Positions 3,094 through 53,475 of a stretch of 64,000 bases of DNA are shown piece after piece. The notes beneath the pieces are model-generated. The model searched no databases. It worked only from the letters and a program-made list of their open reading frames with translations, and was not told the DNA's origin. The stretch comes from Thermoplasmatota archaeon. GTDB lineage: Archaea; Thermoplasmatota; Penumbrarchaeia; Penumbrarchaeales; Penumbrarchaeaceae. The stretch lies in NCBI GenBank assembly GCA_029762535.1, contig JARVGK010000001.1, forward strand, positions 32,368 through 96,367, in the 5' to 3' direction. The position numbers and the translations under genes are program-made. Position 1 is the first letter of the stretch. Each line of letters starts with the position of its first letter.

Positions 3094-3102
3094 GGTATCG
3101 TC

Positions 3103-4530: not shown

Positions 4531-4554
4531 GGAGGAAAGGCATTAATTGGATAT

Positions 4555-5802: not shown

Positions 5803-5866
5803 TATGTTTATTTACGAAAAACCATTACCCTGAAGGGATGGTGGCAAAGGCATCGTTTCAGGTCAG

Positions 5867-8632: not shown

Positions 8633-8664
8633 AAATCCATGTATGGGAATGGAGTTCGATCGTA

Positions 8665-10189: not shown

Positions 10190-10325
10190 GACCTCAAAGA
10201 GATGTGGCGGCCCTTTATCTATCTTTTCCGAAACGGCCCTCCATCGTCCCGAACGAGCATCACTCCATGGAAAGGGTTTAAATCGGCCCAATAGATTGCC
10301 CCCTTCATCTCTATGGGGGATAAAG

Positions 10326-11093: not shown

Positions 11094-11165
11094 GACCGGA
11101 CCACGTGAGATGGGCAACCCTTTTATGCCTCGACCACCTACCCTCTTCTCCCTAAACGAACGGGG

Positions 11166-13340: not shown

Positions 13341-13359
13341 TCGGAATGGAGGCCAAGAC

Positions 13360-14307: not shown

Positions 14308-14338
14308 AATCACCTCTTGAGGTGTAACCGGCACCTGA

Positions 14339-26060: not shown

Positions 26061-29000
26061 GTGATAGATATCATGAAGGAAAAAATGCAAGGGAGCGCCA
26101 AGGCCATAGTATCTCTTTTCATGCTGGCTCTGCTGATCGTAATGCCATGGGGCATCACCGCGGATGCCAACGACCCTCAGCCGGCAGAGGTTCCGCCGAC
26201 AAGGGCCTGGCTCGACATCGCCATTGATGGGATCGAGAGGATCCAGAGCACTGTGTCGAACAATATCTATCCCGGTCAGAAGGTCGAATTGGCCGTACGC
26301 CTAGTCCATGATATCAGGCCGTATGTGAGCGATACCCCGATCACGAACTCCAATCCATTCACCGTGGTTATTGTCATCGACGATGACAAGGGGAACGTGT
26401 CGACAATGTACAAGCAGATCACCAGCATGCCTCTGACCTATACGGCAATGGATCCACAAACAGGCATGCCGAACCCTCTCTTCGTCTCATTCTTCTGGAC
26501 CGCTCCAGATAAGGCACCCCAGGGGTATTCATGGGCACAGATGAGCTATTCGGTCTATTCCACCATCACGGTCGATGACGACGACAAGTCCGACAATTTC
26601 AGGACGGGCTCGGCCATCAGGATCTCCGAACCCGACTTCCAGCCCCGGATCCATCAGGAGGACGAGACCAAACCTGGCGTCACCAGCAAGGTCCACGACG
26701 TCTCTCTCGGAGAGGCGGTGTTCCTTCCGTTCGACCTTTGGAACGAAGGTCCGGCAGTGGACATAATCGGCATAGAATACATGTCAATTCCCGAGGGTTG
26801 GGTTCCCTCGCCCTTCGAACCCATCGAGGTGTTCCCGAACAACTATCAGGAGATGAACCTCGCCCTTCTCGTTTCCCCCAACCCCGTTCTTGCCCAGCAC
26901 GACCTGACCTACGACCTTGTTGTCAGGCCTTATTCCACCTTCTTCAAGGAGGGCCCCTATAACATAGACCCGACCTACACGTTCAAGTTCAAGGTAAGTC
27001 TGGCGCCCGCATGCGTCATAGACCCTGCGACCCCCTCGATGATGCTGGTCCCAGGTATTAAGACCGACGTCCACTTCACTCTGAGGAACACCGGCAACGC
27101 CCGGGACACCTACACCCTTTCCTGGGCCCTGGACGAGAGGGCCAGCAAGGAATGGAGGGTCGATTTCAAATCAGGGATAGGCCAGCCTACCGTATCACCG
27201 GGCGAATCGACCCAGGTCACCGTTGGTGTCACGGTCCCCATAAACACGGCGAAGAACCAGAACGTTCAGCTTTTCATCAAGGCCGAATCGTCCAGAAGGC
27301 AGGGGATGATAACGACAAGTACACCCTGCGTGATATTCGCGGCCGAAAGATATGCCGCCGACATCGAACGTCAGACGGAGCCCCACCTGGTAGAGCCCGG
27401 AAGGGAGAACCGAATAACCTTCAACTTCACCAACATGGGCAACGACAAGGACCCCAACCAGGCCCTCAGGGTCCAGTCCGCTCCAAAGGGTTGGAAGGTG
27501 TTCATAGACCAGTCCCCCCTGAAAACGGGTAACGGGCTGGGCCCAAGGACCAGAACAAGGGTGACGATGACGATATTCGTGCCCGAGACCTCCACGACAT
27601 CATACAAATCATCCAGGCCTCCGTTCGTAATGGTACAGGCGGTGGGAGGGCCTTACCTGAACATACTCGATACCGAGCAGTTCTTCTTCGAGGTCCCTCT
27701 CAAGAACAGGGTCGGCCTCAGCTCGGACGATCCGATCAAGACGGGCTTCGTCGGTGGCCAGACCGAATTCATAGTTTATGTCCAGAACAAAGGCAACTGG
27801 GACGATACCTTCAACCTGACCACGGACTTCGAGTGGGCGGACCTTGAGATGGACCGAACGCCCCCCCTCTTCGCGAACGATTCCATCCCCGTCAGGATAG
27901 TCGTCAGGATCCCCTCTGACGCCGCAGCGGATACGAACCCGGACACGCCCAGGATCCTCGACGGATACAAGATACGCGTATTCGCCTACTCCCAGAACGA
28001 GACCCGAAAGGGAGCGACCCTGGTCAGCCTCGATCTGACCCTGAAGGTCGCCCCATTCTACAGCTTCGACATGGCGCTGGCACCCGGTGAGAGGCCACTC
28101 AGGTTCTCCACGGACCACGATCAGATCCGTGTCCTCAAGGTGAGGATTAGGAACACCGGGAACATAGCTGACCTGATACGCCTGGAATGGGAGGATAATC
28201 CCTTCTCATCCTGGATATTCCTGCAGAACGTTTACGTGGATGTGCCGTACAAGGACCATTTCGACGCATTGATCACAATAAGGCCCAAGGCCTTCACGGT
28301 CGCAGAGGCGCAGATCATCTCGATGAACCTGATCGGATACTCGCAGTACGATACCGAAAGGATACCGTTCAGATCGAACATATCTTTGGATCTCGAATTC
28401 TTCACGTTGATGTTCGAGATCAACCAACCCCGAATGAACAATCAGACCATTCAAGTGGCAGGTACCAGGGTCGAGCTCGATAAGAAGTACTCCTTCCAGG
28501 TGGAGATATCGAACATAGGCACGGAGGACCTCAACCCGATATACATGGACAGGCTGTTCATAGTGCTGTATGACGCAGGCTTCGAGGTTGACAGGTCGAA
28601 CATCACCTACCTCCTCAGGGGGGGCGAGAGGACGGCCTACTTCGTTTGGTATGCCTCCACACCGGGGCAGCACATACTCACCTTCGCCCTCGAGGGAGAG
28701 TTACCCATAAGCAACCGGGGAGTGAACGAGAAGCAGACGAGCCTCATCGTGAATTATACCGCGGGGCCCCCGGATCCTCCGCCCAACATTCCCGAACTCA
28801 TCGATTTCATGCCGCAGATTCTGCTGATGATCATATTCGGACTGGCCATATTCGTGTTCCTCTACATGTTCAACAAGATATTCATCTCGGCCATAGACAC
28901 GGGATACGACGAGGACGGGACGTACAGGCCTTGGGCGGTCAGGGAGAAGCTGAAAGAGGAGGACCAGCTGCAATCAGCGCCCGAGAGGCCCGCGCTGCCT

Positions 29001-40352: not shown

Positions 40353-40389
40353 GGGTATTGTCCCTTGCTTGTTTATGATACTTTTTCTC

Positions 40390-41605: not shown

Positions 41606-41758
41606 GTGTCATCCTCCGCGCGTGACAATACACGGACGTATCAGGGCCTGTATCTGTTGATTTGGTCTATAATATCTTCCATGCTGGCAGCTGATGGGCG
41701 CGGAACCCGCAAACATTGGGCCCCCCGGGCAATTTAATTAACTTGTAAGTGTATAGGT

Positions 41759-42163
41759 GTGGGGAAAGATATCATGAGATCGGTCGGAAAGGTAATGAGC
41801 TTCTCAGCGACGGGGGCCATAGTCATCAGGTCGGATTCGGCACCTCGAATAGGAGGCAAAGTATGTGATATGAGAGGAAGGGAGATCGGCAGGATAATCA
41901 GGGTAACGGGTCCTGTCGCAAGACCGTATACCATCGTCAAGCCTCTCAAGGACCTGCCCGATGGGATGAACCGCTTGATCGGAAGGGAGCTGTATCTCTC
42001 CGAGATGCCGGAGAAGCGAAGTACGGTAAGCCACGTACGCAGGGATGAGAGAAAACCCAGGGCCGGGAACGATCCGCCTCGTTCCAAGAGCTACGGAAAA
42101 AGGAGCGGGGCCGCCCCAAACAAGAGGCAGGACCGCAGGAGTAAATGGAACCCCCGAGGTTGA
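41759..42163 (+). CDS. gar1: H/ACA ribonucleoprotein complex subunit Gar1
   Basis: MRSVGKVMSFSATGAIVIRSD...IGGKVCDMRGREIGRIIRVTGPVARPYTIV; basic RG/K-rich tail; likely ATG start at 41774. Confidence 0.75.
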   Translation: MGKDIMRSVGKVMSFSATGAIVIRSDSAPRIGGKVCDMRGREIGRIIRVTGPVARPYTIVKPLKDLPDGMNRLIGRELYLSEMPEKRSTVSHVRRDERKPRAGNDPPRSKSYGKRSGAAPNKRQDRRSKWNPRG

Positions 42164-42203
42164 CTATTTATAGTGGAGCTTCAAATCACATGAGGGTGTT
42201 GAA

Positions 42204-42596
42204 ATGGTCGAGAACCACGAGCTATACTTCCACGGTAGGCCCGATCCCGCTTCAGGCCAGATATCGATCGGTCTTGTTCTTGTAAAACAGGGAAGGGTTT
42301 TGGACACGATGAACGGGAGCGTCTCATATTCAGGCAGCCGGGAGAAGGCGCAGTGGGAGGCACTCGTACAGGGCATGTTATTCGCCTCCTCCCATGATGT
42401 CAGAAGGCTGATCATGAAGGGCGATTCGAAATACGTCATCAACTATATGAACGGTGAAATGCCCAGAAGGGATTTCACAGAGATGGAGCATCTCCTTATA
42501 GCGAGGAAGAAGCAGCTCCTTTTCGATCAATGCTTCTTCCAATGGGTCCCCGAGAGCGCCAATTCCCAGGCGATACAACTTTCGAGGTCCGCTTGA
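42204..42596 (+). CDS. small RNase H-like-fold protein (possibly degenerate catalytic residues)
   Basis: LYFHGRPDPASGQISIGLVLV...SREKAQWEALVQGMLFA...KGDSKYVINYMNG resembles RNase HI layout but DGS reads HGR. Confidence 0.3.
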   Translation: MVENHELYFHGRPDPASGQISIGLVLVKQGRVLDTMNGSVSYSGSREKAQWEALVQGMLFASSHDVRRLIMKGDSKYVINYMNGEMPRRDFTEMEHLLIARKKQLLFDQCFFQWVPESANSQAIQLSRSA

Positions 42597-42677
42597 GAGG
42601 TCGGACATTCCAGTGTCGGGGTTAAGGTTTAATGCCTGAGGCCCATCTACCGTTCCACTTCCGGAGATGATAAGCAG

Positions 42678-44132
42678 ATGAGGCTAAGGTTGTTCAACAC
42701 CCGAAGCATGGAAAAGGAGGATTTCGTGCCACTCGAGGAGGGCTGCGTAAGGATGTACGTTTGCGGCCCTACCGTGTATGACAACTGTCACGTCGGACAT
42801 GCAAGGAGCTATGTGGCCTTCGATGTTCTGAGGAGTTATCTCTCGTACAACGGCCTGACCGTGACATACGTTCAGAACTTCACGGATGTGGACGACAAGA
42901 TCATCAACAGGGCGCGAGAGAGGGGCATCCCGCCTCTGGTATTGTCCGAGCAATACATCCAGGAATACTTCGAGGACATGGGCGCTCTGAACGTTCAGAG
43001 GGCGACCATACACCCGAAGGCCTCGGAAACGATCCCGGACATGATAAACATCATATCCTCTCTGATCGGGAAGGGTTACGCCTACGAGGTCAACGGCTCC
43101 GTGTATTTCGAGGTCGAGAAGGCCAAGGAGAGGTTCGGACAGCTCAGACATCAGTCCCTGGACGATATGAGGGACGGAGCAAGGATCGAGGTCGATGAGG
43201 AGAAGAGGAGCCCCAAGGACTTCGCACTTTGGAAAAGGGCGAAGGAAGGGGAGATCTCCTGGGATTCCCCCTGGGGCAGGGGCAGGCCAGGATGGCATAT
43301 CGAATGTTCGACGATGTCCACCAAATACCTGGGAGACACGATAGATATCCACGGCGGGGGGATGGACCTGGTGTTCCCGCATCACGAATCGGAGATCCTC
43401 CAGTCGGAATCTTACAGCGGACAACAGTTCGTCCGTTACTGGGTACACAACGGTTTCGTTCAGATAGACAGTGAGAAGATGTCCAAATCCCTGGGGAACT
43501 TCTTCACGATCAAGGACGTCCTGGAACGCTTCGAACCCATGGTGCTGAGGTTCTTCCTTCTCTATACTCATTACAGGTCTCCAATAGATTTCTCGGATCA
43601 GGCCTTAGAAGAGGCGGGAAGGGCTCTCGAAAGACTCAGGTCCATGTACGGTTATCTGAAGAAGGCCGTGGGATCGGTCGAGGAGGGCGTCACCCCCGAT
43701 CTGGGAGAACCGTCCGAAAAGGCCGTAAGGGCCGCGTTCGAAATAAAGAAAGCCTTCATGGAAGCTATGGACGACGATCTCAACACAAGGGTCGCCATTG
43801 TCCAGTTGTTCCGTCTCGATGACGAGGTGAAGGCGATGAGGTCGGAAGCCGATCTGGATAAGGCGAGCGCTCACATGCTCATGTCCCTGCTCGAGGAGCT
43901 CTCAGGCGTTCTGGGGCTTTCCTTCGATGTCAGGGAGGAGGCCAAGGAAGCGGATCCTGACATACTACGCTCGCTCATCGAACTTTTATTGGAGGTGAGG
44001 AACGATGCGAGGAAGAACAAGGACTGGAGAACAGCGGATCTGATCCGGGACAGGCTTGGTTCTTTGGGGGTAAGGATCGAGGACACTGGGGAGGGCACGT
44101 CCTTCACGATCTCGAAACGGGCCGCCAAATGA
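42678..44132 (+). CDS. cysS: cysteinyl-tRNA synthetase
   Basis: CGPTVYDNCHVGHARS (HIGH) and KMSKSLGN (KMSKS); 484 aa. Confidence 0.95.
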   Translation: MRLRLFNTRSMEKEDFVPLEEGCVRMYVCGPTVYDNCHVGHARSYVAFDVLRSYLSYNGLTVTYVQNFTDVDDKIINRARERGIPPLVLSEQYIQEYFEDMGALNVQRATIHPKASETIPDMINIISSLIGKGYAYEVNGSVYFEVEKAKERFGQLRHQSLDDMRDGARIEVDEEKRSPKDFALWKRAKEGEISWDSPWGRGRPGWHIECSTMSTKYLGDTIDIHGGGMDLVFPHHESEILQSESYSGQQFVRYWVHNGFVQIDSEKMSKSLGNFFTIKDVLERFEPMVLRFFLLYTHYRSPIDFSDQALEEAGRALERLRSMYGYLKKAVGSVEEGVTPDLGEPSEKAVRAAFEIKKAFMEAMDDDLNTRVAIVQLFRLDDEVKAMRSEADLDKASAHMLMSLLEELSGVLGLSFDVREEAKEADPDILRSLIELLLEVRNDARKNKDWRTADLIRDRLGSLGVRIEDTGEGTSFTISKRAAK

Positions 44133-44257
44133 TGACATTCCACACCTGTGGCGCGTTTCTCTTTGACATATATCATGACACATTTAGGGTAATCCTTTTT
44201 AATTCTCGGGGTCAAACCCTATGCAGCGATCGAAGGAAGGTCCACACAGGTGTTGAG

Positions 44258-47200
44258 ATGAAACTGGGAAACGCACGATCGGCAGCCGCCCTGGCCATTC
44301 TATTGCTAATGACCCTCCTGCCCGTTGGCCCCATGATATCGGGGGCGGGATCAGGGGTGTTTGAGGGGGATATCGAAGAGCAGGAGATCGCCGATCAGTT
44401 ATCCTCCAGGCTCGTTTCGATGGGTTTCAGACCGAGGCATCCATACCATGGTTCCAATTTCATACAGACCCCCTCTCCCGCGCCCGAAGGGGCCCGGATA
44501 CATCCTACCGGAACCGCATCTATCGAAATGCACTCCTCTTCAACAAGATACAGCTGGGAAAGTTACTATTCAGATGATATTCTGGACGTCTATGTGGATA
44601 CCAGCACATCCGGCGGAGGCTCCCTATCCTCTCAGGAGGAGACCTTGCTCGACGCGGTAATAACCGATTTCATAGATTACTCCTATCCCAGGGTCAAGGA
44701 CTGGTATGATCCGCTGAACAGGGTGTCCAGCGTGACCTTCTACATCCACCAGATCGACGGGAGGAGCGGCACGGGCGGTTATTATTCGCCGGGTACCGAC
44801 GAGTTCCACATCGACAGGGCCGACATGGACTGGGCAGGGGAGATCGCCGCCCACGAGTTCCAGCATTACATACACGACAAGTACGACCGCTACGAGAACC
44901 TGTGGATAAACGAGGGAATGTCCGATCATGCCGCCTTCCTCGTTTACGGATACGCCTCCGTCCTGTCGAGCCATCTCGCCGTATATTTCAACTACTATCC
45001 TTATACGACCCTGCCGATAGACGATTACAGTTTCTACAGGGATGGCACCACCAGATACTACGGCGTCGCCTTCGCCTATCAGCTATACATGACCCATCAT
45101 TACGGGGGCAAGAACTGGTCAAGGGCCCTTATCAGGTCCTCTCAGAGTGGCATCTCAGGCGTGAACTCGGCACTGTCAACTCTGGGGCACACGGACCGCT
45201 TCCAGGACACCTTCGAAAAATGGATGGTCGCCTCCAGGGTGAACGACAAGGACGCCGGCAACAACGGCGAATATTCCTATGCCACCAGAAACTATCCTTA
45301 CGGCACCCTCCAGACGAAACTTATGGGGTCCTACAGTGGGATCCCGGTCGAGTCGGACGGTCAGATAGGACCCTACGGGCCCCAGTCCTTCAGGTTCACC
45401 TCATCAGCTGGATCGGCCAACACCTACAGGCTGTCGGTGGAGGTATCCAAAGGGTCCCTGTCCTTCGCTGTATATCCTGAGGTCTCGACCTTACCGAGGC
45501 AGGTTACCCTCATAAACTCCGATAGTGGATCGGCCATCTTCGATCTCGATGGATGGGGGAAGGACTTTCAGGCGTTCCAGGTGATCGTCTCGACCACCTC
45601 TTTGGCCGACCTCTCCATCGAACTGGACATACTCGATCTCGAGCCGCCGGTCACGATGTTCGGGATCAATCCTCCCTTACCCGACGGGGATGACGGATGG
45701 TTTATCTCGAAACCGTTGATAACGATGGCGACCGAGTCCGGAGCCACTACCCACTACAGGATAGATCAAGGACCGGAGATGCTTTACAACCAGCCCGTTT
45801 ACCTCGATGACGGGGTTCACACGTTCTCATACTGGTCCATTGACAAGAAAGGCAACGTCGAGGAAGCCAGACATGTCGATCTGAAGATCGACACGGAGGT
45901 TCCGAAGACCTCCATAAGCATAGACCCTGCCGTGCCGGACGGATATTGGTATACGGCCACCCCAACAATAACCCTCGGGACCGATCATCCTGATTCTTCC
46001 ATACACTACAGATGGGACCAGGAGGATTTCGTTCTTTACAGTTCACCGATCAAGGCACCGGAGGGGGAACATCAGCTTTCATGGAGGGCTGTCGACCAGG
46101 CGGGCAACCAGGAAACTCCCGGGAACATGCTTTTCAAGGTCGATACTCTGAGACCGACCCTGTCCTATTCCATTTATCCCTCGGAACCCGACGGGATGAA
46201 CGGCTGGTACGCGTCGGCTCCAAGGATCACCCTCTCGGGCGATGCCCAGGATACGATATATTTCGCCATGGGAAGCAACGATTACTCCAGATACTCCTCG
46301 GGTATCGTGATGCCCGAAGGCATCACGAACTTCAGGGCCGTATCGATGGACCAGGCCGGCAACAGAGGTGAGGAGCTGTTGATGCAGTTCAAGGTGGACA
46401 CGATAAGGCCCAAGCTCACCTGGTCCATGGAGGGTTTCAACTACATGCTGGACAACGCGAGCCAATGGTTCAATGCCCGCCCCGTCATCGATATCCAGTC
46501 CTCCGAAGGCGGGACCAGCATCACTTATTTGCTCAACGATGAGGAAAGATCATATGATGGGCCGATCGTTATTGATGAAGGGCACAATGAGATATGGGTC
46601 CATGCACGGGACAAGGCCGGGAACGAGGCGGAACCGCTTTTCTTCATAATCAAGATCGATACTAAGGCCCCGGTGGTCCGAAGCGAACTGGGCCCACCCT
46701 CGGACAACGGTTGGTACAACGATATGAACATGAAGGTGGAGCTCGAACTGGTTGGAGAGGACGACAGGTCCTCGCCGGCGACCCTTCATTACGCCTGGGG
46801 CGATGCGGAATACAGGACCTACAGGGACGCGATCCCGGTACCCGAAGGCATCAACACGTTGAGATACTTCGCCAGGGACTCTGCAGGGAACGTCCTGAAG
46901 ATAGAGAGCATCGAGGTCAAGAAGGACACCATTCGCCCGGAAGCGGCCATGGAACTCGTCGATGTGACGAACCAGACGATACTGGTCGGCGGCGAGTTGA
47001 TAGTCGATATGAGCGGATCGAGGGACTCGACATCGAACCTCCAATTCCAGTTCGATCTCGGGGACGGGACCATCATCTCGTGGCGCAGCACGTCATCTGC
47101 CTCCCATAGTTATTCGGAAGCGGGGACATATACGATAAAGGGATGGGTCAAGGACAGCGCCGGGAACGTTGCCGAGATCGAGCGAACGATCAATGTGGTC

Positions 47201-47338
47201 GAAGAGGAGATCCCGGCCGTTGATCGGGAAACGGGAACCAACCCGTTACTCCTGGCAGGAGGGGCGGTCCTTCTGGTCCTGCTTCTGGTGATCATAGCCC
47301 TCCTGGCAGTCATCCTCGTGCGAAGGCGCAATGCCTGA
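44258..47338 (+). CDS. surface-anchored zinc metalloprotease (thermolysin-like HExxH + E) with tandem Ig-like repeats, a PKD domain and C-terminal TM
   Basis: Start MKLGNARSAAALAILLLMTLLPVGP (signal peptide) after AGGTGTTGAG; HEFQHYIHDKYDRYENLWINEGMSDHAAF parallels thermolysin HELTH...NEAISD; repeats YRIDQGPEMLYNQPVYLDDGVHTFSYWSIDKKGNVE / HYRWDQEDFVLYSSPIKAPEGEHQLSWRAVDQAGNQE / LHYAWGDAEYRTYRDAIPVPEGINTLRYFARDSAGNV; TM LLLAGGAVLLVLLLVIIALLAVILV. Confidence 0.7.
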   Translation: MKLGNARSAAALAILLLMTLLPVGPMISGAGSGVFEGDIEEQEIADQLSSRLVSMGFRPRHPYHGSNFIQTPSPAPEGARIHPTGTASIEMHSSSTRYSWESYYSDDILDVYVDTSTSGGGSLSSQEETLLDAVITDFIDYSYPRVKDWYDPLNRVSSVTFYIHQIDGRSGTGGYYSPGTDEFHIDRADMDWAGEIAAHEFQHYIHDKYDRYENLWINEGMSDHAAFLVYGYASVLSSHLAVYFNYYPYTTLPIDDYSFYRDGTTRYYGVAFAYQLYMTHHYGGKNWSRALIRSSQSGISGVNSALSTLGHTDRFQDTFEKWMVASRVNDKDAGNNGEYSYATRNYPYGTLQTKLMGSYSGIPVESDGQIGPYGPQSFRFTSSAGSANTYRLSVEVSKGSLSFAVYPEVSTLPRQVTLINSDSGSAIFDLDGWGKDFQAFQVIVSTTSLADLSIELDILDLEPPVTMFGINPPLPDGDDGWFISKPLITMATESGATTHYRIDQGPEMLYNQPVYLDDGVHTFSYWSIDKKGNVEEARHVDLKIDTEVPKTSISIDPAVPDGYWYTATPTITLGTDHPDSSIHYRWDQEDFVLYSSPIKAPEGEHQLSWRAVDQAGNQETPGNMLFKVDTLRPTLSYSIYPSEPDGMNGWYASAPRITLSGDAQDTIYFAMGSNDYSRYSSGIVMPEGITNFRAVSMDQAGNRGEELLMQFKVDTIRPKLTWSMEGFNYMLDNASQWFNARPVIDIQSSEGGTSITYLLNDEERSYDGPIVIDEGHNEIWVHARDKAGNEAEPLFFIIKIDTKAPVVRSELGPPSDNGWYNDMNMKVELELVGEDDRSSPATLHYAWGDAEYRTYRDAIPVPEGINTLRYFARDSAGNVLKIESIEVKKDTIRPEAAMELVDVTNQTILVGGELIVDMSGSRDSTSNLQFQFDLGDGTIISWRSTSSASHSYSEAGTYTIKGWVKDSAGNVAEIERTINVVEEEIPAVDRETGTNPLLLAGGAVLLVLLLVIIALLAVILVRRRNA
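45650..46960 (+). repeat. about five tandem ~85-aa Ig-like (chitobiase-C/Big-like) domain repeats inside the metalloprotease gene
   Basis: Recurring Y..W.....Y..P(I/V)...EG.H.(L/F).(W/Y)...D.AGN.E units; approximate boundaries. Confidence 0.45.
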
Positions 47339-47466
47339 TCGTGAATGGAAGCTGGGATGATGGTTCTATCCTATTATTCGTTGAGTTCATTCCCCGAACC
47401 AGCGGAAAGGGCGGGGTCATGGCTGAAAAAAATGAGATATCCACGCCCCTTTTGGAAGCGACAAAG

Positions 47467-47476
47467 TTTTATATAA
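47467..47476 (+). promoter_or_regulatory. TATA box (ttttatataa) ~65 bp upstream of the giant surface-protein gene
   Basis: Sole strong AT-rich octamer in the 200-bp spacer. Confidence 0.35.
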
Positions 47477-47538
47477 CACAAAGTGGATTCATCAGAGCCC
47501 AATCCTATAGAGGTTGCTTTGGCTTGCTTGGGTCATAG

Positions 47539-50500
47539 GTGATTAATATGATCAAGGGGAAAGTATCGATAGTTATGGCCACATTATTTTTGACAATGGC
47601 GTCCTTCGGCGTCTTGAGCTTCGCTCCGGCGGGGGGCGTTCACGAGAGCGTGAGCGAGGATCCGGTCGTTCAGGGCGAGGTGGACAAGGCTTATTTCATA
47701 AGGAACGACGGCCAGTGGGACAGCCCGATGGAATATGTCGGTCAGACCTCGCTCGGGGTCATGGGGTTCTCCCCGGACGGCGTGTTCATGAACATAGTGG
47801 AGGAGGTCCTCGAGAAGGACGAGGAGGTGCATAGGTCTGGGCATATTCTCCAGTTCACCTTCGACGGCGGCTATCAGGTGCTGCCGCAGGGGGGCGGCAT
47901 GCTCGAAGGCCACATGAACTGGCTTATCGGTCCGGAAGAGGAATGGGTCACCGAGGTGCCCCTTTTCGATAGCGTCATATACGAGAACGTGTGGGACGGG
48001 ATCGACGTCCGATACACCTATGGCGAAAAGGGGTTGAAGTACGAGTTCGTACTCGCCCCGTTCGCGGATCCCTCCGATATCGCCGTGAGAGTGGAGGGTC
48101 AGAGGTCGCTCAAGTTGATGGACGGGAACCTCGTCATAGACGTGAAGGAGGGCCTGACCGTCACAGATAAGGACCTCGACATATGGTATGACGACGGGTC
48201 CTTCGAGAAGGTCAACGGAAGGATCGTTATCCTTGATGGGAACACTTATACCTTCAGGATGGACGGCTACGATCCCTCACGGGGACTCGTGATCGATCCG
48301 CTGTATTACTCCACCTTCCTCGGAGGATACGGGACGGATTACGGCTACAGCGTTGATGTGGACTCCAAGGGATACGCATATGTAGCTGGTTATACCAGTT
48401 ATTCCTCATCCGGTGAGTTTCCCACGACCACCGGCGCTTATCAATCATCCAGGGCCTCGACCTCTTCCGATGCCTACGTCACGAAGTTCAACTACGCCGG
48501 ATCCGAGCTGATCTATTCGACGTTCATTGGAGGATATGGAACTGATTATGCCTACGGCATCGACGTGGATTCCTCCGGGAACGCATATATCACGGGCTAC
48601 ACATACTACTCATCTTCTGGTATCTATCCAACGACCAGCGGGGCCTACCAGACCTCATTTACATATACAAGCTATCCCGAGATATTCGTGACCAAGCTGA
48701 ATTCGGCAGGTTCCTCCCTATCCTATTCAACATTGATTGGAGGAGCTTACTACGATTACGCTTACGACATTGCGGTGGACTCCTCAGGAAATGCGATCAT
48801 AACTGGCCGAACAGGATATTCATCCACATACACTCCCAGTTACGGGGAATATCCGACCACTTCAGGAGCGTACCAGACAAGCAGAGCAGGGACGAACTAC
48901 GAAGCTTTCGTCACGAAGTTCAACTCGGGAGGAAGCTCACTTCTCTATTCCACCTTCCTGGGAGGATGGGGTTCAGATTATGGATATGGTGTGGCTGTGA
49001 ACTCTTCCGGCGAGTTCGCTGTGGCAGGATACACCTCTTATTCCTCGTCAGGCGAGTTCCCAACCACCTCGGGAGCCTATCAGGCGAGCAGGGCAGGCAC
49101 ATCTATGGATGCATTCGTCACGGCCTTCTCCTCGAGCGGAAGCGTCATCTATTCCACCTTTTTAGGCGGCTGGGGCAGCGATTACGGAAGGGCCATTGAT
49201 TTCGACGCCGACGGAAGGGTGGTGGTCGGAGGTTACTCCTCATACTCCTCCTCCGGTGAGTTCCCGACGACCTCCGGGGCATATCAGACCTCGAGGAGCG
49301 GGACTAGTATGGACGCGTTCGTCACGAAGTTCAGCTACCACGGATCGTATCTGGTCTTCTCCACTTTCCTTGGCGGGTCCGGATCTGAATACGTAGATCA
49401 AAATTCTCTGATGGTAGGTGATAACGACAACATTTATTTCGCGGGCCGCACAGTATCGAGCGATTTCCCGACGGTCAATGCCTATCAGGGATCCATCGCA
49501 TATTCATCATACTACGATTGCTTCCTTGTGAACTTAACGAGCGATGGCTCCACCCTATCCTATTCGACATACTTCGGAGGCGGTTACTACGATTACGCAT
49601 ACGGCCTGGCAGTCGATAAGTACAACAACGCCTATGTCACCGGATATACCCGGTATTCATCCACGTATTCCACGACATACGGCGAGTTCCCGACGACATC
49701 CGGAGCCTATCAGACCAGCAGGGCCGGGGACAGCTACGAAGCCTTCCTCTTTAAATACGGGGAGAATTTCACCGATGACACAGCACCGGTCCTCGGTACG
49801 GACAGCTCGGATTCATCCGCCTATACTGGCCAGGATTTCACCTTCCAGATCGCGGTCACGGACAACGTCGGTGTAACTAAATTGCATGTGGAGTACTGGT
49901 TCGGAACAGGATCCCACACGAACGATTCGATCCCTCTACTGGAGCCTTACACCCATACGATAACGGTCCCGAACTCTCTGGACACGATGTACTATTTCTT
50001 CTCCGCGGCGGATTATCACGGCAACTGGGTGAAGGGATCCACTCAGAGCAGGTCCCCCATTGACGGATCGGGCCCCGAGTTCGCGGATATGTCCATAACT
50101 CCTGACCCGCCCACGACCGGTGACAGCGCGACGGTGATGGTGAACGTCACGGACAACGTTGCAGTCGATAACACGACGGTGATGATCCATTTCAGGGACC
50201 AGACGGACGCTTCTTACACTTCCGCATACATGACCCATGTATCGGCGGACCTGTACAGCTATACCAATACGATCGGGACATACTGGACCCGTGTATACTT
50301 CTATATTACCGCCGATGACACCGCCGGTAACAGCGGCTCCACGGCCATAATGTATCTCGACGTCGATGATAACGATCCCCCGACCTTCGTCAGCGATGGT
50401 TCGGATCCAGTCGCTTATACTGGAGATCCCTTCACTTTCAACATAACGATGAACGACAACGTCGGGATCGATTACGCATATGTGGAGTACTGGTTCGGGA

Positions 50501-53475
50501 CCGGATCCCACAACGTGAGGTCGCTGACCATATACGGGTCCGGCCTTGGCGATGACCAGAACGGTATGGCCACGATAACGATACCCTACTATTCCACCGA
50601 CAGCTTGAATTATTTCTACAACTTCAGGGACGCGGATGGGAACTGGTGGGCCTCCGGTCCCAGCGCAAACGTAACGGTCTCCGTTCTTGACAACAAGGCC
50701 CCGGACATAATCGACGTCCAGTGGTGGGACGCCTATACAGGGGACGCTTTCTATTTCTCTATCGAGCTCTACGACAACATCGACGGTTACGCCCTGAAGG
50801 AAGCCTATGCCCTGTGGTCCTATGCCGGGGACTGGGACAATTCCACGAACTCCACGCTCAGCTACAACAACGTCAACGACATGTGGGAGAGCAGTTCCTT
50901 CAATGTGAACCTCAACAGCCTTGACCCGATAACCTACTACGTGATCGCCTCCGATCAGGGCGGGAACTGGGTCGTTGACGGTATATACTATACTTACGTC
51001 TATGACAACAAGGATCCCAAGATAGTATCCGATAATTCCCAGGCCGTGGCGACGACGGGGGACGAGTTCGAGTTCAACGTCACCGTGACCGATAATATCG
51101 AGATATCATACGTCGAGGCCTACTACTACTACACCGATATGAGCGACTCGGGTTTCGTATGGCTGATGGACGACGGCTCAGGGAATTTCGCTGGGACCTT
51201 CGAGGTCAAGCACACTTTGACCTCGTTCGAGTACGAGTTCTGGGCCTATGACACCTCATGGAACTGGGCATCCAGCCCGACTCCTGGATCGAGGACACCG
51301 GTGGACAACGATGTACCGGATATCTTCAACGACATGAGCCCGTTAAGCGGCGAGACCGGCAAGACTTACAAGTTCAGGGTGATGATCACCGACAACATCG
51401 CTCTGATGCCGGGTTCTATGGAGGTCAGCTACCGCATAGGTTCCGGAACCACGACCGATACCTCCCTTACGAGGATCGCAGGCAACATCTACGGGGCGGA
51501 AGTGACCCTTCCAGGCCAGGCGGGAATGCTGTATTACACATTCTCCGCGACCGATACCTCCGGCAACGTCCACACGACGGATGAGGTTCAGGTTCAGATC
51601 CTTGACATCACCCCTCCGGTACTGGGAACACCCGCGTTCTCGATGGATGCCTATACCGGAGATGACTACGTTGTTACGATAACGGCAACGGACGATGTAG
51701 GGGTCACTTACGTCAGGATGCGCTACTATTTCGGTGACGAGATGCCCTCCACGGTCCCTTATGTCGAGGGGGTCGCAAGCGGGAGCACTTACACACTGAC
51801 CGTCCCGGTGCCCCACATGCTGACTACCCTTCACTTCTCGATAGTGGCCTCCGATGCCCAGGGCAACCTTCAGACGCTTCCGTTCGTGACCGTCGAGGTC
51901 CACGACAACGACCTGCCCCAGCTGGATGAGGACCGCAGCTCCACCGAAGCGGTTACCGGCGGGGATCTCCTCTTCAACATCACCGTTAGCGACAATATCG
52001 GGGTTTCCCATGTCAACGTCCACTATACCCTTCCGGACGGTACGATACACATAGACGAGATGTACAGGGAAGGTGACATATTCACTCTGCATATACCTAT
52101 CTCGGACAATTACAGAGGCGATCTGACATACGCCTTCGAGATCGTCGATACCTCCATGAACGCGTTCATCACCGATGAGGTCACCGTTACCGTCATGGAT
52201 GACAAGCTACCCGTGGCGGACTTCAATACACCTGAGCGCGTCATCCAGGGGGTCGAAGTGATCTTCGACGGATCGATATCCACCGATAATGTAGGTATAA
52301 TCAACTGGACATGGACCATGGAGGATATGATGTACTACGGAGCAGAAATATCGCACGTGTTCGAGGAGGCGGGTACGTTCATGGTGACCCTGACCGTCTT
52401 GGACGATCCATCACATCCGGCCGTATCCGTCGAGAAGGAAATATTCGTAATAGACAGCGAGAACCCTGTACCCCTCGCAGAGGTCCCATCGGTCCTTGGC
52501 AACCATGAGATGCTCCAGATCGACGGCAGCGGGTCAACGGACAATGTGGGAATAGACCGCTACATGTGGCAGGTCCATCTCCCGGACGGTTCCAGGTACG
52601 ACAAGTCCGGTCCGACGATGAGCCATGACATGGCCGGTGTCCTGGGCGTTGTCAGGGTCATGCTAACGGTGTTCGATGTCGTTGGCAATTCTGGTTCAGA
52701 AATGTATGAGATCAATGTTATGGACATCTTGCCCCCGACCGTGATACCCCCGGCCGATGTGGAGGAATACGAGGGTTCCGCCTTGAGGTTCACGGACCGT
52801 GATTCATACGACAACGTTGGGATCGTCGAATGGCATTGGAACATAACGTGGGACATGGGATATACCGTCCTCAGCGGCAGGACCGTGACATATTACTTCG
52901 ATACCGCAGGGAAGTACAACGTCACTTTGACCCTTACGGATTCGGGGGGCAACGTGGCCTCCTCGTATTTCATAGTGACCATCAACGAGAAGGACGAGGA
53001 CTTCGACTCCGATGGCGATGGGATGCCCGACCAGTGGGAGGACATGTATGGTCTGAACAAGTTCCTTGACGACGCGGACCGCGACCCGGACATGGACGGA
53101 TTGACCAACCTCGAGGAATACAGGATAGGAACGGACCCGCTCGACCCCGATACGGACGGCGATGGGCTTCCTGACGGCTGGGAGGTGAAATATGGCCTCG
53201 ATCCTCTGGACCCCTCCGATGCAGATCAGGATATGGACGGCGATGGCGATACGAACCTGGAGGAGTACCTTGACGGATCCCACCGGGATCCGACCGTGAA
53301 GGATGCCGAGGTGAAGGAGGAGGACAATACCGTCCTCATCATTCTCCTGCTCGTCGTCTTCGCGATCCTTGCGATACTGATCCTCGTGGGGGTCGTGATG
53401 TTCATGACGAAGGTCCCGACCGTCGAGGAGAAGTTCCCCGAGAACGATTTCCCGCATCTATACAACAAGGAATGA
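47539..53475 (+). CDS. giant (1978 aa) cell-surface protein: signal peptide, SBBP-type beta-propeller repeats, ~9 tandem ~100-aa Ig-like domains, three PKD domains, TSP3-like Ca-binding repeats, C-terminal TM
   Basis: YSTFLGGYGTDYGYSVDVDSKGYAYVAGYTSYSSSGEFPTTTGAYQ repeated ~8 times (SBBP); recurring ...TDNVG(V/I)... domains; PKD (FDGSISTDNVGIINWTW, IDGSGSTDNVGI, FTDRDSYDNVGIVEWHW); DSDGDGMPDQWE / [14 protein letters not shown] / DQDMDGDGDTNLEEY; TM LIILLLVVFAILAILILVGVVMFM. Confidence 0.8.
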   Translation: MINMIKGKVSIVMATLFLTMASFGVLSFAPAGGVHESVSEDPVVQGEVDKAYFIRNDGQWDSPMEYVGQTSLGVMGFSPDGVFMNIVEEVLEKDEEVHRSGHILQFTFDGGYQVLPQGGGMLEGHMNWLIGPEEEWVTEVPLFDSVIYENVWDGIDVRYTYGEKGLKYEFVLAPFADPSDIAVRVEGQRSLKLMDGNLVIDVKEGLTVTDKDLDIWYDDGSFEKVNGRIVILDGNTYTFRMDGYDPSRGLVIDPLYYSTFLGGYGTDYGYSVDVDSKGYAYVAGYTSYSSSGEFPTTTGAYQSSRASTSSDAYVTKFNYAGSELIYSTFIGGYGTDYAYGIDVDSSGNAYITGYTYYSSSGIYPTTSGAYQTSFTYTSYPEIFVTKLNSAGSSLSYSTLIGGAYYDYAYDIAVDSSGNAIITGRTGYSSTYTPSYGEYPTTSGAYQTSRAGTNYEAFVTKFNSGGSSLLYSTFLGGWGSDYGYGVAVNSSGEFAVAGYTSYSSSGEFPTTSGAYQASRAGTSMDAFVTAFSSSGSVIYSTFLGGWGSDYGRAIDFDADGRVVVGGYSSYSSSGEFPTTSGAYQTSRSGTSMDAFVTKFSYHGSYLVFSTFLGGSGSEYVDQNSLMVGDNDNIYFAGRTVSSDFPTVNAYQGSIAYSSYYDCFLVNLTSDGSTLSYSTYFGGGYYDYAYGLAVDKYNNAYVTGYTRYSSTYSTTYGEFPTTSGAYQTSRAGDSYEAFLFKYGENFTDDTAPVLGTDSSDSSAYTGQDFTFQIAVTDNVGVTKLHVEYWFGTGSHTNDSIPLLEPYTHTITVPNSLDTMYYFFSAADYHGNWVKGSTQSRSPIDGSGPEFADMSITPDPPTTGDSATVMVNVTDNVAVDNTTVMIHFRDQTDASYTSAYMTHVSADLYSYTNTIGTYWTRVYFYITADDTAGNSGSTAIMYLDVDDNDPPTFVSDGSDPVAYTGDPFTFNITMNDNVGIDYAYVEYWFGTGSHNVRSLTIYGSGLGDDQNGMATITIPYYSTDSLNYFYNFRDADGNWWASGPSANVTVSVLDNKAPDIIDVQWWDAYTGDAFYFSIELYDNIDGYALKEAYALWSYAGDWDNSTNSTLSYNNVNDMWESSSFNVNLNSLDPITYYVIASDQGGNWVVDGIYYTYVYDNKDPKIVSDNSQAVATTGDEFEFNVTVTDNIEISYVEAYYYYTDMSDSGFVWLMDDGSGNFAGTFEVKHTLTSFEYEFWAYDTSWNWASSPTPGSRTPVDNDVPDIFNDMSPLSGETGKTYKFRVMITDNIALMPGSMEVSYRIGSGTTTDTSLTRIAGNIYGAEVTLPGQAGMLYYTFSATDTSGNVHTTDEVQVQILDITPPVLGTPAFSMDAYTGDDYVVTITATDDVGVTYVRMRYYFGDEMPSTVPYVEGVASGSTYTLTVPVPHMLTTLHFSIVASDAQGNLQTLPFVTVEVHDNDLPQLDEDRSSTEAVTGGDLLFNITVSDNIGVSHVNVHYTLPDGTIHIDEMYREGDIFTLHIPISDNYRGDLTYAFEIVDTSMNAFITDEVTVTVMDDKLPVADFNTPERVIQGVEVIFDGSISTDNVGIINWTWTMEDMMYYGAEISHVFEEAGTFMVTLTVLDDPSHPAVSVEKEIFVIDSENPVPLAEVPSVLGNHEMLQIDGSGSTDNVGIDRYMWQVHLPDGSRYDKSGPTMSHDMAGVLGVVRVMLTVFDVVGNSGSEMYEINVMDILPPTVIPPADVEEYEGSALRFTDRDSYDNVGIVEWHWNITWDMGYTVLSGRTVTYYFDTAGKYNVTLTLTDSGGNVASSYFIVTINEKDEDFDSDGDGMPDQWEDMYGLNKFLDDADRDPDMDGLTNLEEYRIGTDPLDPDTDGDGLPDGWEVKYGLDPLDPSDADQDMDGDGDTNLEEYLDGSHRDPTVKDAEVKEEDNTVLIILLLVVFAILAILILVGVVMFMTKVPTVEEKFPENDFPHLYNKE
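48300..49775 (+). repeat. about eight tandem SBBP (beta-propeller) repeats of ~60-65 aa
   Basis: Units beginning YSTF(L/I)GG(Y/W)G(T/S)DY(A/G)Y...D(S/A)SGN(A)Y(V/I)TGYT.YSSS.(E)FPTT(S)GAYQ(T)S; approximate boundaries from residue offsets. Confidence 0.6.
49790..52200 (+). repeat. about nine tandem ~95-105-aa extracellular domain repeats (Ig/cadherin-like) each carrying a (T/S)DN(V/I)(G/A) motif
   Basis: e.g. AYTGQDFTFQIAVTDNVGVTKLHVEYWFG, AYTGDPFTFNITMNDNVGIDYAYVEYWFG, ATTGDEFEFNVTVTDNIEISYVEAYYYY, GETGKTYKFRVMITDNIALMPGSMEVSY, AYTGDDYVVTITATDDVGVTYVRMRYYFG, AVTGGDLLFNITVSDNIGVSHVNVHY. Confidence 0.5.

Follow-up and report, generated by a model that had tools for sequence, protein, structure and literature searches.

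Four large genes encode putative type I membrane proteins

The window that we have analysed is a 64,000-nucleotide stretch of DNA from a Thermoplasmatota archaeon. It holds archaeal markers (S3Ae, CDC48, DUF2240 and a wyosine enzyme), and the nearest relatives of its CysRS are found in Thermoplasmatota MAGs at 65-68% identity. Four large ORFs, shown by translation to be real and all on the + strand, as are all features described below, are labelled here P1 (26061..29201), P2 (30323..33496), P3 (44258..47338) and P4 (47539..53475). Together they add up to 15,333 of the 64,000 nt, or 24%, in line with the ~24% given in an earlier sequence-only reading of this DNA. That reading also held that each of the four proteins starts with a signal peptide and ends with one hydrophobic helix, and both points are borne out by our analysis.

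Signal peptides and helices were called from hydropathy and the -3/-1 rule only. The N-terminal hydropathy peaks fall within residues 3-33 of each protein, and each hydrophobic segment is accompanied by a small-x-small site; the candidate cleavage sites read from the translations lie between ADA and N (P1), VSA and W (P2), SGA and G (P3) and APA and G (P4). The N-termini of the orthologs resemble those of P1-P4. A Kyte-Doolittle (KD) scan shows exactly one C-terminal helix in each protein, with 19-residue maxima of 2.58, 3.30, 3.70 and 3.81 at residues 919-937, 955-973, 1003-1021 and 1932-1950 of P1 to P4, respectively, and no further strong hydrophobic segment besides the N-terminal and C-terminal ones. 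This pairing of hydrophobic ends was absent from the other 41 ORFs covered by the same scan. Compared with the other proteins, P1-P4 are poor in Cys (0.1% vs 1.1%), rich in Thr, Tyr and Asn, and poor in Lys, Arg and Glu; such a composition is typical of extracellular proteins. Each protein has a signal peptide at one end, a single helix near the other and, between them, an ectodomain that is poor in Cys and rich in Thr, Tyr and Asn, and on this evidence P1-P4 are predicted to be type I proteins of the cell surface.

Some details of the earlier description need to be revised. The tails had been called short, and basic or Pro-rich, in all four proteins, but only two of them are short: the sequence after the helix measures ~107-109 residues in P1 (Pro/Gln/Ala-rich), ~81-84 in P2 (with conserved motifs), 5 in P3 (RRRNA) and ~26-28 in P4, the last of which is not basic. 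CARDB, PKD or Ig-like modules are indeed found in all four proteins, but a description of the proteins as built from these modules omits the large non-Ig heads of P2 (~300 residues), P3 (~410) and P4 (~670). When the full-length proteins were searched against PDB sequences with phmmer, PKD or CARDB domains only, or no match, were returned.

Domain organization of P1 and P2

P1 has 1046 residues in the ORF, although translation probably begins at the ATG at 26073. The signal peptide covers residues 1-36, with cleavage predicted after ADA. The ectodomain is all-beta, with ~8 CARDB/NEW3-type beta-sandwiches (residues ~50-900). P1 matches the NCBIfam family NF041740, choice-of-anchor T, with 82.1 bits (E 3.4e-23, three stretches) and passes the cut-off of 70. 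In the AF2 model, a helix at residues 913-939 (28797..28877; KD peak 2.58) comes after the all-beta ectodomain and is taken as the transmembrane helix. Directly after it, the ortholog alignment reveals a conserved, putatively cytoplasmic motif, ISAIDTGYDEDGTYRPWAVREKL (28878..28952), which is followed in the translation by a low-complexity, Pro/Gln/Ala-rich tail of 82 aa (28953..29198). In an alignment of 32 sequences with a mean column identity of 47%, G948 and D950 are invariant and the stretch I940-E962 is nearly so; the pattern [IV][DE]TGYDE.G.Y[RK]PWA matches 28 of 31 P1 orthologs. In a degenerate-DNA scan of metagenome contigs, the motif was seen in P1 orthologs only; their tails range from 26 to 213 aa and contain 31% Pro on average.

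Archaeal S-layer glycoproteins of Haloferax and Nitrosopumilus are built from Ig-like domains. P1 is conserved, has ~1000 residues, and is acidic and all-beta, with ~8 Ig-like domains and a C-terminal membrane anchor, and its layout broadly resembles that of Ig-domain archaeal S-layer glycoproteins and membrane-anchored S-layer stalks. Such anchored stalks have been described in archaea (PMC3387779). One of the four proteins, most plausibly P1, could then be the S-layer lattice protein of the lineage, and the others S-layer-associated. Fold searches gave generic Ig/CARDB domain matches only, with no S-layer-specific support. We consider this assignment improbable.

P2 (1057 aa) has a signal peptide at residues 1-34, with cleavage predicted between VSA and W35. 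A helical head is followed by a CARDB domain, two PKD domains plus unassigned beta regions (Pfam matches PKD_4, CARDB and PKD), a transmembrane helix (residues ~951-976; 33173..33250; KD peak 3.30 at 955-973) and a conserved tail of ~81-84 aa. Four aligned orthologs show 43% overall identity, and N-glycosylation sequons number 24 where 8.5 +/- 2.7 are expected.

The P2 head (residues 35-335; 30425..31327) is a candidate zinc-dependent phospholipase C / nuclease P1-like helical domain. It matches Pfam Zn_dep_PLPC (PF00882) with E 0.0054 and 17.1 bits, under the gathering threshold of 26.8, and its homolog P0032 reaches 14.3 bits against the same threshold. Trp35 is invariant and stands directly after the predicted signal-peptidase site, and the window copy, L084 and P0032 all have H172-x3-D176-x5-H182. 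The P2 head thus resembles the PF00882 enzymes in having Trp as its predicted first mature residue, in the H-x3-D-x5-H arrangement and in its all-helical prediction; in Bacillus cereus PLC, Trp1 and His/Asp residues at this spacing are zinc ligands. Unlike these enzymes, it scores below threshold, and ligand positions are replaced in two of the four orthologs (His172 in L082; His172, Asp176 and His182 in L083), so catalysis by the head appears doubtful in part of the family. A profile of five P2 heads found no PLC and no significant match among PDB sequences. The AF2 model of the head, made from a two-sequence alignment, is all-helical with a pLDDT of 46, which is too poor for a fold test, and Foldseek with this low-confidence model gave no match at E <= 0.001.

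In the P2 tail (33251..33493), predicted to be cytoplasmic, two motifs are invariant in the ortholog alignment, K.GTGTDFD.RR..QIPKESI and, at the C-terminal end, I.G.I.FD-acidic. A phmmer search of the tail against 1.84 billion representatives returned nine matches: five P2-like proteins of 1049-1056 aa, matched at their C-termini, and four sequences of 61-173 aa, which are read here as gene fragments.

Domain organization of P3, P4 and a fifth, smaller protein

A start at 44129 would give the longest ORF for P3, but the N-termini of its orthologs and the place of the hydrophobic segment speak for 44258, which gives a protein of 1026 aa with a signal peptide at residues ~1-30. The layout of P3 is backed by a six-ortholog alignment. 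Its head (residues ~60-470; 44435..45667) is a gluzincin-type HExxH metallopeptidase-like domain with HEFQH-x15-E in ...NLWINEG. H199, E200, H203 and E219 are invariant in seven sequences, in the form HEF[QE]H-x15-E within NLW[IV][DN]EG. Carrying HExxH and a downstream Glu that are both kept in orthologs, the features by which gluzincins (clan MA(E)) are recognised, the P3 head would qualify as one of them. It is 32% identical to P0034, a protein with an InhA-like MAM domain, over 152 aa spanning the HExxH motif, with the motifs aligned. The HExxH...NEG motif is shared with MXAN_6640-type, flagellinolysin and InhA-like (M6-related) proteins, and ~150 residues can be aligned with proteins that carry InhA-like MAM domains. 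Unlike these proteins, the P3 head is joined to a stalk of OmpL47-type and PKD modules with a membrane helix, and it scores far under the family cut-offs, with 22-24 bits against a cut-off of 140 for MXAN_6640_HExxH (NF045524). The head matched no curated family above its cut-off, and a profile of it had no significant match among PDB sequences, i.e. no relative of solved structure by sequence. Word-indexed homolog searches with the P2 and P3 heads alone gave one and eight proteins, respectively, too few to align well.

The P3 stalk has five OmpL47-type/Big_13 modules and a PKD domain (Pfam Big_13 and PKD_4; NCBIfam barrel_OmpL47 at 152 bits over five stretches), and the protein ends with a transmembrane helix and RRRNA (47255..47335; KD peak 3.70). 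Unlike the window copy, all five P3 orthologs continue after the helix with Pro/His-rich tails of ~35-70 aa; downstream of the P3 stop codon, no frameshifted Pro-rich continuation was found in any frame.

P4, with 1978 aa, is the largest of the four; its start is called at the ATG at 47548 in the source assembly. The N-terminal part, after the signal peptide, holds DUF7948 (residues 53-255) and seven SBBP propeller blades (residues ~256-725), each with the motif [FY]PTT.GAYQ. These are followed by eight Ig-like repeats of ~100 aa (residues ~730-1545, read from the translation), three PKD-like modules (residues ~1550-1830), TSP3 calcium-binding repeats (residues ~1835-1925), the transmembrane helix (residues ~1930-1952; 53326..53394; KD peak 3.81) and a tail of ~26 aa. 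Pfam matches are DUF7948 (E 6e-39), PKD_4, SBBP and TSP3_bac, and the ortholog in L004 has the same architecture at 44% identity. The stalk and propeller domain families of P3 and P4 are those of Leptospira OmpL47, LipL53-type SBBP lipoproteins and bacterial PKD/TSP3 adhesins. Scores against the full-length Leptospira equivalog models stay well below their cut-offs, at 122 bits vs 250 for Lepto_OmpL47 and 34 vs 400 for Lepto_SBBP_lipo, and, unlike the Leptospira lipoproteins, P3 and P4 belong to an archaeal host and have a helix as anchor, not a lipid.

A looser hydropathy census found a fifth protein of the same design, with 475 aa (3103..4530), outside the span of the earlier reading. It has an N-terminal hydrophobic segment, one NEW3/CARDB-like domain and a transmembrane helix at residues 321-350, after which the translation continues with RRRR and a basic, Pro/Ser-rich tail of ~125 aa. 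It is weakly similar to the repeated domain of P1 and has no Pfam match. No 8-mer is common to at least three of five upstream regions compared for a P1-P4 motif; these hold only separate TATA-like boxes.

Probable membrane anchoring of P1-P4

The sequences of P1-P4 suggest that each would be exported by the Sec pathway via its cleavable N-terminal signal peptide and be kept in the cytoplasmic membrane by its single C-terminal stop-transfer helix, leaving an ectodomain of 900-1900 residues outside and the tail inside. Domain matches and the structure model indicate that the stalks would consist of beta-sandwich modules (CARDB/NEW3, OmpL47/Big_13, PKD and DUF4625-like). Distal heads would be carried by P2 (diverged zinc-phospholipase-C-like), P3 (HExxH gluzincin-type peptidase-like) and P4 (DUF7948 and the seven-blade SBBP propeller), where they would serve substrate processing or binding, while P1 would be an all-beta stack.

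Among archaeal Sec substrates, the combination of a signal peptide with a transmembrane segment at the C-terminus is an established way of anchoring, known for the Sulfolobales S-layer anchor, the alpha-amylase of S. solfataricus and oligopeptide-binding proteins (PMC3387779). P1-P4 resemble these substrates in having a signal peptidase (SPase) I-type signal peptide, one C-terminal helix and an extracellular enzyme or binding domain that stays tethered to the membrane. They differ from them in being much larger and multi-modular and in coming from an uncultured Thermoplasmatota lineage, and P1 and P2 differ further by their long tails with conserved motifs.

The type I topology is common to all four proteins, and to this extent the single anchoring design proposed before is upheld, but the anchors have no common sequence. 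All-against-all BLASTP of P1-P4 found one 104-residue Ig/PKD-like stretch only, between P3 and P4; judged by their sequences, the four are not paralogues. A modular anchor shared among them is rejected, each tail being specific to its own family by BLASTP, the NCBIfam scan, the phmmer search of the P2 tail and the DNA scan for the P1 motif.

It could be argued that the C-terminal helices are archaeosortase/exosortase-like sorting signals that are cleaved, the proteins then being attached to lipid or a wall polymer. The window copy of P3 ends in the helix plus RRRNA and so has the tripartite shape of such a signal, much as PGF-CTERM substrates of archaeosortase A, such as the S-layer glycoprotein of Haloferax volcanii, have a hydrophobic stretch followed by basic residues. 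When the C-termini were scanned with NCBIfam models at E <= 10, sub-threshold generic matches were obtained for P3 only (LPXTG, 11.3 with a cut-off of 15.9; Loki-CTERM, 9.2 with 19.9; Heimdall-CTERM, 9.1 with 24). P1, P2 and P4 had none, no model reached its cut-off, and the PGF-CTERM model gave no match on any of the four. P1, moreover, belongs to a 'choice-of-anchor' family, and relatives within such families use various sorting signals. In P1-P4, however, no signature motif (PGF, PEF, VPXXXP or LPXTG) precedes any of the helices. A helix at the extreme C-terminus is seen only in the window copy of P3; P1, P2, P4 and all P3 orthologs run 6-213 residues further, and in P1, P2 and all P3 orthologs 35-213 residues with conserved motifs follow the helix. 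Since this sequence after the helix is long and conserved, it is incompatible with a signal whose C-terminus is discarded, and removal of the C-terminus is unlikely for these proteins, in contrast to PGF-CTERM substrates. P1 also departs from choice-of-anchor T (NF041740) in being archaeal, in its ~1000 residues and in its several copies or fragments of the domain; its anchor is a plain helix with a conserved cytoplasmic motif and no dedicated sorting signal. Cleaved sorting signals are therefore, in our judgement, a very unlikely account of the helices, although the window copy of P3, given the shape of its C-terminus, may be processed.

P1-P4 are conserved in position among related genomes

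The sequence-only reading took the four proteins as a surface-decoration repertoire, possibly forming a genomic island. The former part agrees with our view of P1-P4 as cell-surface type I proteins with domains typical of adhesins and surface enzymes; the latter does not hold. The two border genes that it named are present, with a thiamine pyrophosphokinase gene (TPK) and a DnaA-like gene found flanking by Pfam. Two adjacent pairs of giant surface genes within 27 kb may look like an accessory island, a variable repertoire acquired horizontally or exchanged between strains. Yet P1-P4 lie at three separate places between housekeeping genes, which include those for ribosomal protein S3Ae, an RNA methyltransferase, polyprenyl synthase, CDC48, DnaJ, RNase H and CysRS. 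No tRNA gene is present in the 64-kb window, and no gene between 21.8 and 63.5 kb has a Pfam match that points to an integrase, a transposase or another mobility gene; an RVT_3 match was rejected as a mobility gene, as it represents an RNase H-like gene that is kept in relatives.

By composition, P1-P4 cannot be distinguished from their neighbours. Their GC content is 0.545-0.566 (0.567 +/- 0.022 in other window genes) and their GC3 0.709-0.750 (0.717 +/- 0.049), and their amino-acid-normalised codon usage lies at a distance of 0.36-0.54 from the pooled neighbours, no higher than for housekeeping genes of similar length. The tetranucleotide distance is raised over P4, which could be counted in favour of an island, but elsewhere only over the equally composition-biased DnaA-like gene.

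Gene order was compared with L002, L004-L007 and L082-L087, wherever the contig reaches. The order S3Ae–kinase–receiver–P1–methyltransferase–P2…CysRS–P3–P4–TPK recurs in ~10 related Thermoplasmatota contigs, down to ~40-45% protein identity. P1 and P2 occupy the same place in L082-L087, and P2, P3 and P4 in L002 and L004-L007, so that all four positions are kept in relatives at 40-88% identity. The closest relative has P1 at 88% and P2 at 86% identity, values that fall within the span of 64-97% seen for the genes around them. The sole variation seen is an additional gene, for a surface protein of this design, between CysRS and P3, present in L002, L005 and L006 (the last also with a regulator) and absent from the window, L004 and L007. 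The neighbourhood of P3 in relatives is thus not completely rigid, a point in favour of an island. Nevertheless, matching composition, interleaved housekeeping genes, the lack of tRNA and mobility genes in the ranges given above and conserved gene order together argue so strongly against an island that we regard it as extremely unlikely; the earlier reading had itself named like composition and conserved synteny as the outcome that would speak against it.

Considering topology, sequence and gene order together, we argue that P1-P4 are likely to be type I membrane proteins that are unrelated to one another, inherited vertically and conserved in the lineage, and whose common design reflects convergence on the default archaeal anchoring route.

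Possible roles of the cytoplasmic tails of P1 and P2

The P1 motif and both P2 tail motifs rank with the best-conserved segments of their proteins, in which identity is otherwise 40-47%. Judged from the alignments, both tails appear to be under purifying selection, and for this reason they probably contact intracellular partners. To our knowledge, no counterpart to these long, motif-bearing tails has been described among C-terminally anchored archaeal Sec substrates.

It is conceivable, though we hold it as a tentative idea, that P1 and P2, rather than forming a passive coat, act as transmembrane couplers or receptors and use their conserved cytoplasmic motifs to bind partners of the cytoskeleton, of sorting or of signalling. 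Pro-rich tails recur in P1, P3 orthologs and the 475-aa protein, and in each of the relatives examined the genes immediately upstream of P1 encode a soluble PAS histidine kinase and a stand-alone receiver. The adjacency of the kinase, however, carries no specific signal because everything in the block is syntenic, and P1 has a TATA-like element of its own, 232 nt downstream of the receiver gene. Moreover, the P1 and P2 motifs match no known family in the NCBIfam scan of the C-termini, and residues beside the membrane could be conserved for other reasons, such as insertion, topology or contacts with lipids. Such a role is compatible with the inheritance of P1-P4 as conserved type I proteins and extends that explanation. 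The broader proposal, that the giant surface proteins of this lineage act as transmembrane couplers, with the P1 motif, the Pro-rich tail and the P2 tail motifs docking cytoplasmic partners, seems to us rather unlikely as it stands.

Implications for the cell surface of the lineage

The common design of P1-P4 is the ordinary route of archaeal Sec substrates and is largely an ordinary finding; a literature search for directly comparable Thermoplasmatota surface proteins found nothing specific. It does show that large and repetitive genes for surface proteins, when met in a MAG, are not necessarily the sign of a mobile island; here they are core genes that keep their positions. It also gives a picture of the cell surface in an uncultured group of sediment- and spring-dwelling Thermoplasmatota, with four or five conserved type I proteins that would display a candidate protease, a phospholipase-C-like head, a propeller and Ig stalks, which bears on the attachment to polymers and their degradation. 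The one unexpected point, and the only element that could lead somewhere new, is the conserved cytoplasmic motifs of P1 and P2, which suggest intracellular partners. If the two proteins do act as couplers, they would connect the cell surface with structure or signalling inside the cell, and eukaryotic adhesion receptors or Mycoplasma cytadhesins would have an analogue in archaea.

Gene calls and membrane topology

The four large genes for which the sequence-only reading had proposed one anchoring design, P1–P4, are long open reading frames (ORFs) on the forward strand at 26061-29201 (P1, 1046 residues), 30323-33496 (P2, 1057 residues), 44258-47338 (P3, 1026 residues) and 47539-53475 (P4, 1978 residues), as that reading had placed them. 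Together they span 15,333 nt, which agrees with its estimate of ~24% of the window. The longest ORF of P3 starts at 44129 and overlaps the stop codon of the cysteinyl-tRNA synthetase (CysRS) gene. We prefer the start at 44258, because P3 orthologs align from residues 1-8 of this start and because only with it is the hydrophobic segment N-terminal. Translation of P1 and P4 likely begins at the ATG codons at 26073 and 47548, respectively.

Membrane segments in 45 ORFs of the window were scored by a Kyte-Doolittle scan of 19-residue means. Each of P1–P4 has one hydrophobic segment within its first ~35 residues, as expected of a signal peptide, and plausible signal-peptidase sites can be read from the translations (ADA|N in P1, VSA|W in P2, SGA|G in P3 and APA|G in P4). 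Near the C-terminus the scan finds one strong helix in each protein, with means of 2.58 (P1), 3.30 (P2), 3.70 (P3) and 3.81 (P4), and no further convincing membrane segment in any of the four. It detects no hydrophobic segment in the window's remaining two giant ORFs, a 902-residue RNB-domain protein and a 1246-residue DnaA-like protein. In the latter (54209-57949, reverse strand), ~900 extremely charged residues precede a bacterial-type DnaA ATPase domain (residues 932-1082, E 2e-34), and a double zinc ribbon lies at the C-terminus, an architecture unusual for an archaeon. Overall it contains 265 Asp+Glu and 187 Lys+Arg.

The pooled composition of P1–P4 is extracellular-like: Cys falls to 0.1% versus 1.1%, Thr, Tyr, Asn and Trp are raised, and Lys, Arg, Glu and Leu are lowered. 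N-x-S/T sequons are enriched in P2 (24 versus 8.5 ± 2.7 expected) and show no enrichment in P1, P3 or P4.

The design is not restricted to the span first described, since a fifth protein built in this way was found at 3103-4530 (forward strand) by a looser census and translation. Its 475 residues comprise a hydrophobic segment at the N-terminus, a single NEW3/CARDB-like domain with weak similarity to the P1 repeat, a helix at 321-350 followed by RRRR, and then a basic, Pro/Ser-rich tail of ~125 residues. At 1115-13340, eight of ten consecutive ORFs (216-475 residues) have no Pfam match at E < 1e-4; several carry one or two membrane segments, and only a CTP synthase and a weak hydrolase match are recognisable.

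A shared topology with family-specific tails

P1–P4 are not paralogues: in an all-against-all BLASTP comparison the only match is an Ig/PKD-like stretch of 104 residues that P3 shares with P4. The tails differ as well. Beyond the helix lie ~107-109 residues in P1, 81-84 in P2, 5 in P3 and 26-28 in P4, so the short tail ascribed to all four is true of only two, P3 and P4.

In P1, the helix is directly followed by the motif I-S-x-I-D-T-G-Y-D-E-x-G-x-Y-R-P-W-A-V-K-E-K-L, in which G948 and D950 are invariant and about a dozen adjoining positions nearly so, in an alignment with a mean column identity of 47%. A strict regular expression for this motif matches 28 of 31 orthologs, and 26-213 residues with a mean of 31% Pro follow it. 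The P2 tail contains K-x-G-T-G-T-D-F-D-x-R-R-x-x-Q-I-P-K-E-S-I and ends in I-x-G-x-I-x-F-D-acidic; both motifs are invariant in orthologs that are 43% identical overall. The tail of P4 is short and not conserved. In P3, the window protein stops five residues past the helix (RRRNA; 47321-47338), and Pro/His-rich tails of ~35-70 residues are present in all five orthologs (L002, L004, L005, L006 and L007, related Thermoplasmatota contigs). As no frameshifted remnant was found downstream of the window P3, its tail is truly absent from the window.

Could the C-termini belong to a known sorting class? An NCBIfam scan of the four (E ≤ 10) returned no sorting-signal model above its cut-off. PGF-CTERM is absent from the matches, and P3 alone receives generic sub-threshold ones to LPXTG (11.3, cut-off 15.9), Loki-CTERM (9.2, cut-off 19.9) and Heimdall-CTERM (9.1, cut-off 24). 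We therefore reject membership of the PGF-CTERM/archaeosortase, LPXTG, Loki-CTERM and Heimdall-CTERM classes, as no model reaches its cut-off. The conserved sequence on the predicted cytoplasmic side also argues against C-terminal removal by a sortase-like enzyme.

In database searches, each tail is confined to the family of its own protein. Among 1.84 billion representatives, the P2 tail matches nine proteins, five of 1049-1056 residues aligned at their C-termini and four shorter ones that we read as fragments. When the P1 motif was sought in a degenerate-DNA scan, three metagenome contigs matched, and each carries a P1 ortholog in the same gene order. Since the tails are family-specific and the proteins unrelated, the shared design is one of topology. 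A signal peptide combined with a C-terminal transmembrane segment is one standard fate of archaeal Sec substrates (PMC3387779), and P1–P4 would use this route.

Stalks and heads

The proposal that CARDB, PKD or Ig-like modules make up all four proteins is correct for the stalks and leaves out large heads. P1 matches NPCBM_assoc/NEW3, CARDB and Ig_VWA7, and belongs to the NCBIfam choice-of-anchor T family (82.1 bits, cut-off 70). Its AlphaFold2 model (32 sequences, mean pLDDT 82) shows an all-beta ectodomain of ~8 sandwiches (residues ~50-900) and, after it, a helix at 913-939. In P4, seven SBBP propeller blades follow an N-terminal DUF7948 (E 6e-39), continued by eight ~100-residue Ig-like repeats, three PKD-like modules and TSP3 calcium-binding repeats adjoining the membrane.

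The ~410-residue head of P3 precedes a stalk of five OmpL47-type/Big_13 modules (152 bits) and a PKD domain. It carries HEFQH-x15-E (...NLWINEG), invariant in seven sequences, and can be aligned over 152 residues (32% identity) with proteins bearing InhA-like MAM domains, which also have sub-threshold MXAN_6640 and flagellinolysin HExxH matches. The head carries the gluzincin motif and matches no curated family above its cut-off.

P2 has a ~300-residue head, then a CARDB and two PKD domains. The head scores 17.1 bits against zinc-dependent phospholipase C, short of the Pfam threshold of 26.8, and its predicted structure from a two-sequence alignment has a pLDDT of 46. It contains H172-x3-D176-x5-H182 (window 30836-30868), and an invariant Trp immediately follows the predicted cleavage site. 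Such a His/Asp cluster and a Trp at this position are known from the zinc sites of phospholipase C and nuclease P1. The putative ligands are intact in the window P2, in L084 and in the database homologue P0032. Two of the four orthologs have substitutions at the His and Asp positions, His172 in L082 and all three residues in L083, suggesting that part of the family has lost catalysis. P0032 (ENA, 369 residues) is a short homologue limited to the P2 head, which keeps the H-x3-D-x5-H cluster and runs straight into a helix and a poly-Arg tail. The head can therefore stand as a module of its own, anchored with no Ig stalk.

Core genes or a genomic island

The suggestion that these genes form an accessory island for cell-envelope functions is rejected. 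P1–P4 match the other 41 genes in GC (0.545-0.566 versus 0.567 ± 0.022), GC3 (0.709-0.750 versus 0.717 ± 0.049) and codon usage. Tetranucleotide distance is raised only over P4 and the neighbouring DnaA-like gene, both extreme in amino-acid composition.

The genes among and around P1–P4 are housekeeping genes. Ribosomal protein S3Ae, a soluble histidine kinase and a receiver lie upstream of P1, and a UPF0020-type RNA methyltransferase between P1 and P2. The P2–P3 interval holds polyprenyl synthase, a JAB protein, DUF2240, a HisA/F-like protein, CDC48, DnaJ, an RNase H-like protein and CysRS. The thiamine-kinase gene said to border the span is indeed there, as thiamine pyrophosphokinase (TPK) downstream of P4. 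No tRNA gene was found in the window, and the Pfam matches of the genes between 21.8 and 63.5 kb include no mobility gene. All relatives share a conserved, zinc-ribbon-like ORF of 84-92 residues (33510-33788, reverse strand) that separates P2 from polyprenyl synthase; its DUF6487 match of 23.7 bits falls slightly below the cut-off.

Gene order is conserved in the related contigs. The window itself matches an 89-kb Logan contig. The nearest CysRS relatives (65-68% identity) are Thermoplasmatota MAGs, and in L002 and L004-L007 the order P2 … CysRS – P3 – P4 – TPK is retained wherever the contig reaches, with orthologs 40-44% (P3) and 38-44% (P4) identical. L082-L087 likewise repeat the order of the window, S3Ae – kinase – receiver – P1 – methyltransferase – P2 – small zinc-ribbon ORF – polyprenyl synthase. 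All 31 full-length P1 orthologs are in this lineage. P1 and P2 are not hypervariable, because their identities to the closest relative, L084 (88% and 86%), fall within the 64%-97% of their neighbours. The only presence/absence difference in the block is an extra gene between CysRS and P3 (L002 11481-13070, L005 8303-9865, L006 11499-13214). Its product, 520-571 residues long, follows the design of P1–P4: a thioredoxin-like CxxC head and a Big_7 Ig domain lie between a signal peptide and a C-terminal helix. L006 additionally has a B-box/HTH (HVO_0163-like) regulator there (13275-14507). Neither gene occurs in the window, in L004 or in L007. Matching composition and conserved synteny, which the sequence-only reading had itself named as arguing against an island, were both found.

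Upstream of each of P1–P4 lies a separate AT-rich, TATA-like element, and comparison of the upstream regions found no common motif, so there is no evidence of a common regulon. The kinase and receiver directly upstream of P1 (24311-25829, forward strand) are a soluble PAS-HisKA-HATPase protein lacking a membrane segment and a stand-alone receiver, an arrangement repeated in L082, L083, L084 and L086. As P1 has its own TATA-like element, a functional link is no more than a candidate.

A proposed model for the surface proteins

We propose that the Sec system would export each of P1–P4, that signal peptidase I would cleave it, and that the stop-transfer helix would retain it as a type I membrane protein. 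The beta-sandwich stalks could then hold distal heads away from the membrane: a candidate peptidase in P3, a phospholipase-C-like domain, maybe partly degenerate, in P2, and a propeller with DUF7948 in P4. P1 is a pure beta-stack. The topology signals, domain families, conservation and synteny are direct results of the analysis, and from them the route of export, exposure at the surface, enzymatic roles and tail function are inferred.

In this uncultured Thermoplasmatota group P1–P4 belong to the core gene set, not to an accessory island, and encode lineage-specific surface proteins with a standard anchor. What remains of interest is the conserved cytoplasmic motifs, as the conservation of the tails suggests that they may have intracellular partners.
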